Shown: piece after piece, positions 4,066 through 63,952 of the stretch
Layout: each line of letters starts with the position of its first letter
Position numbering within the stretch: position 1 is the stretch's first letter
From: Octopus sinensis
Lineage: Eukaryota
Assembly (NCBI RefSeq): GCF_006345805.1
Contig: NC_043001.1
Coordinates: 68,014,001-68,078,000 of the forward strand
Length of the DNA stretch: 64,000 nt
Reading direction: 5' to 3'
The notes under the pieces: model-generated
The model's input: only the letters and a program-made list of their open reading frames with translations
Told to the model about the DNA's origin: nothing
The model's database searches: none
Program-made: the position numbers and the translations under genes

Positions 4066-4773
4066 CACACACACGTCCGCGTACACACTCACGCACGCAC
4101 GCACACACACACACACACACACACACACACACACACACACACACACACACACACACACACACACACACACTTGTAGACATACGTCGTAAAAATACGAACA
4201 TGACAAATTTAACTACTCCAAGGACTGAAAAAAATGTTAAATGAATATGCCTTCTAAACTGCGGTATTAGTACTGAGCAAGTATCTTTTAAAAATTCACA
4301 GAAAATTATTAGCAGCAGGCGAAGGTCACCTACCAGCATTTAGATTTCTGCTTATTGGCTTCATCACATGCCAAGCAAACCTCAGCTGCAAGCTGATATA
4401 GTTAATCGGTCATTGATGTCGCATTTAGCCATGAAAGTGGACAAAATTTAATTATATATATATATATATAATTTCATTAAAGCTGTAAAAAATCACAAAA
4501 CTGCTACTCAGAGTTCACGTTCCTGTTCGTAAAAGTATATAACTTTAACTGTGGTATTCGAGTACTATTTTTTCCACCTTGTTTTGCATTTATGTGTTCA
4601 CCTATGTGTGTGTGTGTGTGTGTGTGTGTGCGTGCGTGCGTGAGTGTGTACGTGCACGTGTGTGTGTACGTGCACGTGTGTGTGTACGTGCACGTGTGTG
4701 TGTACGTGCACGTGTGTGTGTACGTGCACGTGTGTGTGCCATCTCCCCGTCGATGTGGAGGTTCCCCGAATGG
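4031..4773. repeat. Inverted duplication (arms 4031-4170 and ~4605-4773) of the LINE end plus (CA)n
   Basis: CCATTCGGGGAACCTCCACATCGACGGGGAGATGGCACAC at 4031 is the exact reverse complement of the sequence ending at 4773. Confidence 0.9.
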
Positions 4774-6529
4774 TTGTTATGTTTGTCAGGGTTGTTATGT
4801 TTGTCATTCATTCAGACAGAAAGATCTGCTCAATTAGGGTCAACTTAGATCAATAACGACAACAACAAAAAGATGAACAGCTCCAACAATAACAAGAACA
4901 AGATCCAAAGTAGCAGCAACAGCAGCAGCAGCAGCAGTATCAAAGACACCAACAATAACAGTTTTGTCTTTCTCCGAGAGAAATTCTCCATCCTTCCTTC
5001 ACCATTGAATACAAGAGTGGCAACTGCGCCATTGAAATGACGTAACTTTATAGTAAAGCAACCGTATTCCTTTTCCAGACTGATGACGTCATTTGAACAA
5101 CGTTCATTCATATAGTCTTTCAATATTTCATTCATACATTTCTTCTTTCATTCATTGAACTTTGTCTGAAACGAGTCAATTTCGTCTTTGTTCAATCGGC
5201 GAATCACAACACAGTTTCCATATACCACAGCTTCACTCTCTCCCCCATCCCCTCTCTTTTATCTCTATATCCCTCCTCCCCTGCCTCTCCCGTTTCCCTG
5301 CCTCTATTTTTCTCTCTGCTCCTCTCCTCTCCCGTCTCTGTTTTATCCCTTCTCTGTCTCTCACTTCATCTCTAACACAATTATCTATCTATCTATCTAT
5401 CTATCTATCTATCTATCTATCTATCTATCTATCTATCTATCTATCTATCTATCTATCTATCTATCTATCTATCTATCTGTCTGCCTGTTTGCTTGTGTGT
5501 CTGTGTGTCTGTCTGCCTGTCTATCCGTCTGTCTGTCTGTTTGTATCTGCTGCCTGCCTGTCTTTCTATGGCTCTGTTTGTCTGTCTTCCTCTCTCTGAC
5601 ACCCCCTCTTGCTATTCCTCTTCTTTCTTTCTTCTCTAACTTACTGCATTATAAAGATGTTTTAATGTTTATGTGTCTGTGTTTTTGTATCATTTTGTAT
5701 GTTTGTGTGTGTATGTGTATGTGTATGTGTGTATGCCTCTGTGTGTACCTGTGCTTGTGCGTGTCTGCACGTGTGTATATGTGTGTATGTATGTGTATGT
5801 GTGTATGTGTACTTAACTGTGGGTTTATGTGTATATGTGCTGCAGGAAATAAAGACCTTCATCGCTTAGCATACAATACCAATGATGTCATTTTTCACAC
5901 AGACACAAACCCACAACAATTCATATATTAACCAGTGAATTATGACACACACTCTCCCACACACATACACATATACACATAGATATACACACAGACATAC
6001 ATATATACATTCATACATACCTATACACACCTATACATGCATACATACATACATACATACATACATACATAAATACATACATATATATATATATATATAT
6101 ATATATAATATATATATATATATATATATATATATATATATTATATATATATATATATATATATATATATATATATATATACACATACATACATACACAT
6201 AGATGCATAAACATACGCACATAAACGCACATGCATTGTTCTGTACATAGTTTGTTGAAGAGCCTGCCATTAGTACACTCATAGAATAACAGAATAGCCA
6301 AATCCTTGAATTAATTCCAGTTTGTAGAGTTTCCTGTTCAGAATCTGCCCCACAATCCCGATCATTGCCAAGACGGTAGAGATAATCCTAGTTATTGCCA
6401 CTGACATTGTGATAAATTATAGAGATAGCTTATCGAAGATTAGTTCTGTTTAAACTTTTACATAGCGAGGTCATCGATATGTAACAAAGACAACAAAAAC
6501 CATTTGGAGGGGGGGGCTTTAAAATATTC

Positions 6530-7290
6530 AGAAAAGAAAATGGAAATGGTTCAAAAGAGACAGGTATGAGGGAAAAGGAGAAACAACAGGCATTGTGAAA
6601 ATCATACAAACTAATATAAAAAAGAAAGGGCTACGGAATGGAGCTTCGGAATATTATAACGAAGCGATAGCAAAAACAGTCTCTACATGGTCAATACCTG
6701 TTGAATAGGGTAAAAGTGTTTGAGAAATCTATGATTATAAAACGACTCTAAAGGGCTTTTGATTGTGGCAGAGGATCAAAGCCTTTTCACCAAGATCTAC
6801 TAAAAACATTTAATGATGCAGAATTGCAGAATACGTGAAGATGAGGAGGAAATTGTTAGAATATTATTTCTGGTTGTCTTGTTTTAACCAAGAATGAATA
6901 TATTGATAAACATGAAATGTTTTTCTTACTCTTGAAATTATACCAGATCAAATACCAACTGAAAAGAGGTGGTGTAAGCATACACCAGAAAAAGTGGAGA
7001 AAATGACAAAGTAACTGTATTTACCAACATACAAAGACAAGGAGAACAAGGCTAAATAGCCAGATATTGTTGTCAAGGATAGGCAAATAAGGGGGTGCCT
7101 TCTGATGAGAAACCGTATTTCTAAAAAGAAATAATTTAAATATAAAGACGTGAATCTGCAAACCAAAACAGTTCTTAAACCAATACGTTCATTGGAAATG
7201 ATTACAAATATGCAGACAAATGCATAACCCAAACATTAGAACATAGGAGAAAAATAACACAAGATACTGTAAATACATCATTTAGAGAAA
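6530..7290 (+). mobile_element. Old R4/Dong-type RLE LINE remnant
   Basis: Broken translation KRWCKHTPEKVE...K*PDIVVKDRQIRGCLLM resembles the RLE domain at 31486-31839. Confidence 0.6.
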
Positions 7291-7629
7291 TTTCAATATT
7301 ACGAAATATAAAAACAAAAGAGAACACTGCATAGAGTTGCAGTCGGTTGAGCAGTAAACAAACAATAAAAACAAGATTCCGAAATGACAAAGTTAACCAC
7401 GACGTGAAGTGAACATAAAGAGCCGAAAGAAATGCTGTTAAGCATTTCGTCCGACGCCCAAACAATCACACAATCTCGCTGCCCTTATAATAATAATAAT
7501 AATAATAATAATAATAATAATAATAATAATAATAATAATAATAATAACAACAACAACAACAACAATAACAACAACAACAAAAACAACAAAAACAACAATA
7601 ATAATGATTTCAAAATTTGGTACATGGCC

Positions 7630-62991: not shown

Positions 62992-63335
62992 AAAGGGTAA
63001 AGACCCCCTTCGGTCATGAGTGACCATGGGATTGCACCTAGAAAGTTACCCTCCTAGACACAAGTCCGGGCAAGGTTGTTTATGGAAGACCAGCAGTCGC
63101 CCATGCATACCAGCCTCCCCTCTCCACGCTACCAGTGTTATCCAAGGGAAAGACAAAGGTCGATACAGCTTGGCACCAGTGACGTCGCAACTCATTTCTA
63201 CAGCTGAGTGAACTGGAGCAACGTGAAATAAAGTGCCTTGCTCAAGAACACAACGCGCAGCCCGGTCCGGGATTCGAGCTCACAACCTCACGATCGTAAG
63301 CTCGACGCTCTAACCACTGAGCCATGCGCCTTCAC
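62992..63335 (-). mobile_element. tRNA-derived SINE (family of 1440-1768)
   Basis: Minus strand GAAGGCGCATGGCTCAGTGGTTAGAGCG...GCTCGAATCCCGG tRNA-like head. Confidence 0.88.
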
Positions 63336-63861
63336 TTATATATATATATATATATGTATGTATGTATGTATGTATGTATGTATGTATGTATGTATGTATG
63401 TATGTATGTATGTAAGTGCTTTGGTTTTACTGGGATCTCCCTTTTAAGTAGAAAGAATAGCCAAAACATTTTGACTGCTATTTCTAAATTCGGTGTGTGG
63501 TGAGGCAAATCGTTGCTGAACCCTTAATTAATTAGTATTACTTAAACCTTCCTTGAATGGGTCTTTTACATGCCGAACTCTACTTGGTGAAATTAATGAT
63601 TATTTCTAAATTAATTAATTGATTTCACCCTTTATTATTGATAATTGTATTTCTTCCCAGTAAAAAACTGTAGCATCTTATTTTGGCAACACGCTGGCGG
63701 AAGGGGAAGGTGACTCACTTCCATTCACCCTTTGAATTTGGCTGTACTGGCAAGAATTACGCTCGCTCTGATACCATGAGTTGAGGTGATGTCTTCTAGT
63801 GCCTTCAAATTTAATACACAATTATTAATAATTGAGACGCAATAATTTATAATTGAAGAGT

Positions 63862-63952
63862 CCTACGCTGAGGAGGAAAATAGTAAGGTAAGACATAATT
63901 ATTTAATTTTTATACTCTGCTATGACTTAATTCCGAAACGTGCGTCCGTAGG
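63862..63952 (+). ncRNA. Type I hammerhead ribozyme motif, intact core
   Basis: ccuacg-CUGAGGA-ggaa...uucc-GAAA-cgugc-GUC-cguagg. 6-bp stem I, 4-bp stem II base, GUC triplet. Confidence 0.85.

Follow-up and report, generated by a model that had tools for sequence, protein, structure and literature searches.

In a stretch of 64,000 nucleotides from Octopus sinensis (NCBI RefSeq assembly GCF_006345805.1, contig NC_043001.1, positions 68,014,001 to 68,078,000 of the forward strand; hereafter the window, to which all plain coordinates refer), an initial annotation made from the sequence alone noticed a swarm of hammerhead ribozyme motifs. This raises the question of whether such motifs exceed chance, what kind of element carries them and whether they could cut the transcripts of the host. 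The window was very probably a local accumulation of repeats bearing type I hammerheads, some being the ends of retroposed repeats and others short and protein-free; these were likely inserted by the reverse transcriptase (RT)-endonucleases of Penelope-like elements (PLEs). Motif families are referred to below by the position of their copy in the window.

Motif density in the window and the genome

Motifs were sought with a descriptor combining the type I core (CUGANGA...GAAA...UH) with helices I to III, in which helix I was open and a palindromic helix III was favoured without being required. Depending on stringency, there were 4–8 matches in the window against 0.03–0.15 in local dinucleotide shuffles; under the final settings there were 7 matches against 0.03 (maximum 1 in 100), while the reversed window produced none. 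The bare core CTGANGA occurred 53 times, where 26 ± 5 were expected. Across the 2.72 Gb host genome, 116 evenly spaced 10-kb stretches (1,159,700 bases) contained 27 canonical motifs against 1–3 in shuffles, so that motif density exceeded that of shuffled sequence at both scales. The sample corresponds to ~22 motifs per Mb, or an estimated ~59,000 in total (Poisson range 38,000–88,000). Therefore, 1.5 motifs would be expected per 64 kb and the window, with 7, was enriched about 5-fold (P ~0.001, post hoc); the 40 kb flanking it had a single descriptor match. The annotated density of one motif per 3 kb was reached only by counting decayed and unverified sites, and was local rather than genome-wide. 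In the same 1.16-Mb sample, the U4C variant of the core (CCGANGA) had 9 matches against 0–2 in shuffles; twelve other single-change cores, including U3-A8, were at background, and helix II inserts longer than 110 nt with strict stems were not found.

These motifs were invisible to Rfam. No window motif was matched at the gathering score; at E ≤ 10 there was no hammerhead among the 17 matches to positions 34400–36120, nor among the best 150 of 258 matches to the whole window, which were repeat-driven and mostly to miRNA models. Model RF00163 (Hammerhead_1) was reached by no window motif, and did match other families of the host genome (7 matches among 74 scored candidates). The description of the population as mostly unannotated therefore stands with respect to Rfam. 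The three-helix type I core was present nonetheless, and most members were complete in each of eight families.

Dispersed families and conservation of the core

All nine searched regions of the window with a confirmed motif belonged to families dispersed through the genome. First-look genome candidates numbered 2466 (14750), 1869 (25725), 821 (26952, inflated by an adjacent repeat), 1147 (63868), 2710 (34469), 1546 (36036), 467 (24211), 2111 (60735) and 2064 (43470); these are not copy numbers, and 40 candidates were scored per family. The best matches ranged from ~80% to 100% identity. When all loci were pooled, there were 154 distinct motifs in 45 sequence clusters, among which a few singletons may be chance. 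The palindrome of helix III was perfect in 23 clusters, and in 31 if G-U pairs were accepted; the distance from A9 to G12 was at least 40 nt in 24.

Among relatives of less than 88% identity, gathered by homology and not by the descriptor, 16 of 481 cells at non-CpG core positions were changed, whereas the figure elsewhere was 624 of 3306 (Fisher P = 1.6e-22); these cells are not independent, given their shared ancestry, and gathering by BLAST may somewhat favour conserved cores. Two-sided compensatory changes in the stems were observed in seven of eight families. The initial annotation was accurate in proposing many families with distinct stems and a stem III that is usually a short palindrome.

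The notion that the motifs are chance matches in AT-rich, repeat-rich DNA was true of some bare cores: 59792(-) lay inside the coding sequence of a long interspersed nuclear element (LINE), and 7718(+) and 31104(-) passed loose settings only. As a general account it was exceedingly improbable, given the excesses in the window and in the genome, the lack of enrichment of the twelve other cores, and the conservation and covariation just described; for the eight main families it was refuted. Another candidate, a 5' splice site (GTRAG) as a general element of these hammerheads, was discarded, as it occurred in 7 of 45 clusters where ~6 were expected. At several window motifs, GTRAG was located inside loop II or spanned the cut site.

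The U4C core was recurrent, being found in six of the nine copies of one minimal family. A minimal family with a 2-nt helix III palindrome (L051, L067, L231, L245) had four copies in the 1.16-Mb sample, mostly with U4C. The U4C change lies on a CpG, and deamination would thus convert genomic copies to the canonical core.

Eight sites had been annotated as intact. All belonged to families in which complete hammerheads were the majority, and six window copies passed the descriptor (14750(+), 25725(-), 26952(-), 34469(+), 36036(-) and 63868(+)), while 24211 and 60735 were damaged. In the hammerhead at 14747–14829, helix II was long, helix III palindromic, and the predicted cut fell after 14826. 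Of twelve sites annotated as decayed, five had intact relatives (4501, 14331, 26080, 27073 and 43470), although 43470 was 5'-truncated rather than decayed, its core being present upstream in the two fuller copies fetched. Site 46510(+) was rejected, since GAAA was absent from the three relatives seen. Relatives of 38770 matched its 3' half only, and no relative spanning the motif was found among the fetched loci for 15253, 23955, 39025, 53392 or 58622.

Protein-free tandem units

Copies of the 36036 family were 97–98% identical and spread over many chromosomes. The family formed arrays, with six consecutive full units in one locus (L315) and a spacing of 471–475 bp in another (L314). The 475-bp unit had 33% GC and its longest open reading frame (ORF) with an ATG was 48 amino acids (aa). 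Insertions had one fixed end joined to (TA)n, often with an inverted, truncated copy. The 60735 and 63868 families likewise closed into units of 532 and 596 bp, for which dimers were found. All three units were of 32–36% GC and contained one hammerhead each. Predicted circular folds gave z-scores of -4.1 to -6.5 (475 bp), -2.7 (532 bp) and -6.6 (596 bp), against -1.3 and +0.4 for two controls. The ORF check was run on the 475-bp unit and the tblastn search for PLE protein on L340 and the 63868 loci. Judged by their sequence, these three families are non-LTR (non-long terminal repeat) retrozymes. Two side observations concern such units. A sister family of 70% identity to 36036 (L310:2195-2515) was inserted beside a 36036 copy; it shared the helix III stem, and its helix I showed compensatory changes. 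Elsewhere (L006/L007, G000:C16), a retrozyme-like 431-bp tandem unit with an Rfam-positive hammerhead and a circular fold of z = -3.4 adjoined a relative of the 14750 family.

It is possible, if rather unlikely, that every motif represents the 3' end of a 5'-truncated autonomous PLE, and that the tandems are parts of PLE tandems or arose later by satellite expansion, rather than being retrozymes that move independently. In keeping with this, the 14750 family extended upstream for 700 bp or more and did not form a closed unit, and local amplification from a terminal repeat has been discussed (Li 2026, 10.64898/2026.07.22.740005). Furthermore, the PLE remnant at 43824–46335 had more than 1 kb of non-coding 3' sequence, and therefore 1.5-kb flanks can miss ORFs. 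Against it, the 475-, 532- and 596-bp units were self-closing and ORF-free, and the 475-bp family was found on many chromosomes at high identity with a fixed, (TA)n-joined end. This interpretation probably holds for some families but not for those with tandem units. The annotation of ORF-less elements was upheld for the three tandem-unit families (475–596 bp), whereas other families may be 5'-truncated ends of autonomous PLEs.

Insertion marks and Penelope-like elements

The layout of the copies was characteristic of PLE insertion. At 14305–14960, a tail-less inverted copy abutted a truncated direct copy that ended in a tail and (TA)n, an arrangement drawn for PLEs in Fig. 2 of PMC8557442. There were four such inverted pairs in the window (14305–14960, 25725/26084, 26952/27077 and around 34469), and truncated inverted partners were also seen among the genome matches of most families. 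Of 17 sites, 12 had (TA)n within 300 bp, where 31% of randomly chosen positions did. In the 14750 family, (TA)n was present at 25 of 27 3' ends; the fixed ends of the 36036 and 63868 families were joined to it. End counts of 0/14 (34469), 0/12 (25725) and 0/14 (36036) reflect queries that stopped before the true ends, and were later resolved for 36036. Both the insertion beside (TA)n and the attribution to PLE-type hammerheads were thereby substantiated, the latter by inverted 5'-truncated copies, the one-sided tail and (TA)n ends together.

The genome contained potential sources of the enzyme. Of 150 candidates scored, 149 matched GIY-YIG, and open frames reached 883 aa; two ORFs included both RVT_1 (just under the cut-off) and GIY-YIG, and many RT-GIY-YIG ORFs were intact with a C-x4-CxxC linker. 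By this linker motif only, the PLEs appear Neptune-like. One autonomous family (L275, L278) had a hammerhead ~500 bp past its ORF, and so the proposed link between hammerheads and RT-GIY-YIG masters was realised elsewhere in the genome; in the window, no ORF was tied to any of the eight families. Two copies of the 36036 family were separated by 5.6 kb, but the suggestion that a full PLE lies between them was rejected, as the 4.3 kb fetched yielded no PLE protein. In the 43470 family, a pair of same-strand copies at a distance of 5.5 kb (G000:C3:143526423-143532165) could bracket a full-length PLE.

Within the window, the family of the PLE remnant had a candidate U3-G8 motif, for which a matching 3' half occurred 206–251 nt later in 11 of 19 relatives; as a hammerhead with a ~230-nt insert in helix II, it is doubtful. 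At 24608–25200, a region matching PLE loci comprised tandem ~100/200-bp repeats followed by an ATG and a possible splice donor. With its CCAAT-, CRE- and TATA-like words, this is presumably an internal promoter of the dominant PLE family.

Predicted cleavage and host transcripts

The initial annotation had also suggested that the motifs could cut any long transcript running through the region. The three-way junction was missing from the minimum free energy (MFE) folds of all seven monomers. At six palindromic sites, helix III was predicted to be unfavourable as a monomer hairpin (+1.4 to +1.9 kcal/mol) and to form a homodimer of 8 bp (-5.8 to -11.1 kcal/mol), in agreement with the annotated view that palindromic stems favour dimers. 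Helix III in 36036 and 60735 had a 1-nt centre and was not of the palindromic dimer type. Thus, from monomer misfolding and the homodimer energies, cleavage would seem to need tandem transcripts. In published work, minimal hammerheads showed no activity as monomers and only weak activity as dimers (PMC4209133); of nine frog retrozyme dimers, eight showed no cleavage and one was cleaved (Li 2026, 10.64898/2026.07.22.740005).

Action in cis on a host pre-mRNA or long non-coding RNA (lncRNA) crossing the region was considered improbable. Six canonical copies were intact, on both strands, inverted pairs bring two motifs close (though on opposite strands), and helix III of 36036 and 5080 could form in a monomer. 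However, as well as the monomer folds (7/7 without the junction), no host exon was recognised in the window and no motif there had a same-strand tandem partner. Near-identical copies were already broken, from 8/21 to 12/37 within families and 11/22 in the older 25725 family, a share expected under neutral decay. Of 219 complex ORFs in the window and 40 kb of flank, the 140 longest were searched against Pfam and returned only retroelement domains, apart from one exon-sized PHD match amid LINE fragments in the right flank, which was the sole host-gene domain found. Since no host gene was found in the window and monomers are predicted not to fold, the cutting of any host pre-mRNA or lncRNA is unsupported; the majority of single copies are predicted to be poor cutters and not to fragment host transcripts.

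A-to-G clusters in the 36036 family

Positions 35950–36620 were compared with seven contig sets from organisms A and B that were guessed to be RNA (none being on record as such), and with X15, a large organism-B set of uncertain type with the behaviour of genomic DNA. The 36036 family was present in all seven. In organism A, places with T>C on the + strand, equivalent to A>G on the ribozyme strand, numbered 12, 11, 5 and 10, against 0, 2, 2 and 7 with A>G; in organism B the figures were 1, 2 and 4 against 2, 2 and 2, and for X15, 1 against 3. One X1 contig had eight T>C changes where nearly all of 45–48 genomic pieces read T. In X15, there was no C at 36344, 36367, 36368 or 36407, at summed depths of 0.37–0.99 million. 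Positions 36407 and 36411 were also changed in an organism-B run, and a 5' G preceded 0 of 15 changed sites (P = 0.08). Assuming that the contig sets are RNA, which is a guess, these clusters fit hyper-editing of the sense transcript by ADAR. However, the strand bias came almost wholly from organism A, the DNA-like comparison was from organism B only, and editing of repeats is ordinary in octopus (PMC5625713).

A proposed mechanism

Transposition could proceed as follows. A tandem source copy would be transcribed through two hammerheads whose helix III strands, being self-complementary, would pair from one unit to the next; cleavage would therefore need two motifs. The product would be an RNA of unit length, ~475, 532 or 596 nt in the three tandem families, which may become circular. 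Nicking of (TA)n and copying of the unit RNA by a Neptune-type RT-GIY-YIG protein would yield more-than-unit, 5'-truncated and inverted inserts. Selection would act on the source elements, and the solo copies in the window are likely to be decaying neutrally, most of them being too weak for cleavage on their own.

Several points weigh against this account, and against the PLE-mediated origin of the window's repeats that it serves to explain. Cleavage and circle formation rest on prediction, and monomer activity may be underestimated because nearest-neighbour energies ignore tertiary contacts. Using tblastn with 1.5-kb flanks, PLE protein was found at 1/30 loci for 14750 (a match on the 3' side), and at 0/20, 0/7 and 0/20 for 25725, 26952 and 63868; this per-locus test covered these four families, and 36036 was covered on one 4.3-kb stretch. 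The dominant PLE, of 781 aa, had no hammerhead by nine core patterns, in either 24565–25660 or the matching region of an intact copy. Finally, head-to-tail joints occurred in four of four runs, and were rejected as evidence for RNA circles because genomic arrays give the same joint; therefore, they are no proof of circles.

A broader, tentative reading, which is unlikely as a whole, would join these observations. The genome would hold tens of thousands of hammerheads invisible to Rfam, with long helix II inserts and recurrent U4C; the youngest of its protein-free retrozymes would be expressed as ribozyme-strand RNA that ADAR hyper-edits and that becomes circular, and a dominant Neptune PLE, having lost its own ribozyme, would mobilise them in trans. 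If this were true, hammerhead units would be parasites of PLEs, and retrozyme RNA would be a major target of cephalopod editing, which may tune or mutate it.

Features of the window

The features identified are listed in Table 1. The window was otherwise packed with microsatellites, LINE fragments and Tc1-like remnants, the last so labelled from their translation.

Table 1. Hammerhead-bearing and PLE-related features, by position in the window
Feature	Position	Strand	Remarks
3' hammerhead half	4475..4515	-	Site 4501; abundant family, other copies complete
Extra descriptor match with stable helix III	5076..5190	+	Site 5080; singleton, no relative found, may be chance
Inverted, tail-less copy of 14750 family	14305..14706	-	Hammerhead 14336-14418; U4C the only core change (site 14331)
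5'-truncated copy of young 14750 family (95-97% identity)	14707..14960	+	Hammerhead 14747-14829, ~95-bp tail, (TA)n end
Hammerhead of older family (83-89%)	24208..24290	+	Site 24211; 3' arm of helix I damaged, intact in 5/8 fetched relatives
Terminal-repeat region of dominant 781-aa RT-GIY-YIG PLE	24565..25660	+	Matches PLE loci
Hammerhead, predicted cut 25686	25682..25729	-	Inverted partner of 26080 (25725 family)
25725-family hammerhead, U16.1 mutated	26080..26127	+	Intact relatives
Long-helix-II hammerhead	26877..26955	-	26952 family; inverted partner of 27073
26952-family hammerhead, A6 mutated	27073..27157	+	Intact relatives
Compact hammerhead, predicted cut after 34501	34464..34506	+	Element with inverted arms 34211-34385 / 34502-34676
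One unit (+ ~20 bp) of ~475-bp protein-free tandem repeat	35951..36448	-	Hammerhead 35996-36043, predicted cut 36003
5'-truncated copy, family 98-100% identical	43457..43690	+	Site 43470; 3' hammerhead half only
Broken, 5'-truncated PLE RT-GIY-YIG ORF, C-x4-CxxC linker (Neptune-like)	43824..45057	+	Duplicate fragment 42630-42818
3' region of the PLE at 43824..45057, candidate U3-G8 core 46277-46283	46270..46335	+	Cut off by another insertion
Hammerhead, 532-bp-unit family	60728..60800	+	Site 60735; helix II damaged here, relatives intact
Circularly permuted 596-bp unit	63420..64000	+	Overruns window end; long-helix-II hammerhead 63862-63952, predicted cut after 63946

Several neighbouring elements were also recognised. 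An inverted-repeat fold-back element (46332–46555) truncated the PLE 3' region, and its short tail resembled other (TA)n-flanked repeats. A nearly intact LINE at 18290–21657, RTE-like by its sequence, had its endonuclease and RT across four overlapping or adjacent frames. There were two Tc1/mariner-like remnants (39208–40415 and 41953–43360), the second being split by a part-copy of the nearby PLE RT (42629–42820, 98% identical to 43913–44104). LINE-like RT and zf-RVT fragments at 53737–58122 were bracketed by 335-bp direct repeats (91%), while a strand-skewed segment of ~1 kb (34920–35900), matchless among other fetched loci, is possibly a decayed coding fragment.

Relationship to known systems

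The phenomenon is of a known, published kind (Cervera 2014, 2020; Li 2026), although octopuses have probably not been reported to have it; the system is thus not new in kind, and a host function is without support. Massive, diverse and mostly solo minimal hammerheads, with opposite-strand pairs, were already described by Cervera and De la Pena (2014, PMC4209133). No cephalopod was seen in the text of that paper, nor any mollusc in the main text of 10.64898/2026.07.22.740005, and no report of an octopus hammerhead or edited retrozyme was found in the open-access literature, although the supplements of the Cervera papers and of that preprint may list cephalopods. By Rfam, only 235 hammerheads were counted in the giant squid genome (PMC6962438); motif counts given for coral and axolotl exceed 6,000 and reach 126,247, respectively (PMC7229834). 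The present analysis adds a cephalopod to the animals with PLE hammerheads and retrozymes, at a density of ~22 per Mb, and more if U4C is included, that standard annotation missed. Its additions are the long helix II, recurrent U4C, three retrozyme units, a dominant PLE free of hammerheads and a hint of editing. Young families of 98–100% identity suit open questions over the role of PLE hammerheads and the protein that moves retrozymes, and the 475-bp family allows testing of ADAR editing of a ribozyme-bearing circle.

As with the hammerheads of PLE pseudo-LTRs described in PMC4209133, the octopus motifs had a type I core, a short helix I and a palindromic helix III, with an extra nucleotide after A9 in some families; in both there are many divergent families per genome and mostly solo copies, with opposite-strand pairs 100–700 bp apart. 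They differed in that helix II with its loop spanned 40–100 nt in 24 of 45 clusters, where a helix of 7–8 bp is described there, in the usual 6-nt palindrome of helix III and in the recurrent U4C core. U4C is known from a viroid, with lower activity in vitro (PMC3088659). The estimate of ~59,000 copies compares with 2,000–9,000 per genome in PMC4209133, the descriptors being different.

The PLEs themselves resembled Neptune endonuclease-positive (EN+) elements (PMC8557442) in the order of RT and GIY-YIG, the C-x4-CxxC linker, the bias to (TA)n, tandem and inverted inserts and the one-sided tail. Canonical hammerheads are described there as typical of PLEs with a C-terminal EN, whereas the dominant intact octopus family was without one by descriptor. 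Finally, the tandem units were like animal non-LTR retrozymes (PMC7229834; 10.64898/2026.07.22.740005) in being protein-free and low in GC, in having one type I hammerhead each, in their strong circular self-pairing and in their co-occurrence with PLEs. At 475–596 bp they were longer than the 170–400 nt given in PMC7229834 and inside the 51–972 bp of 10.64898/2026.07.22.740005. Beyond retrozymes as published in these sources, the octopus inserts showed PLE-type inverted copies and (TA)n ends directly, together with candidate A-to-I clusters.

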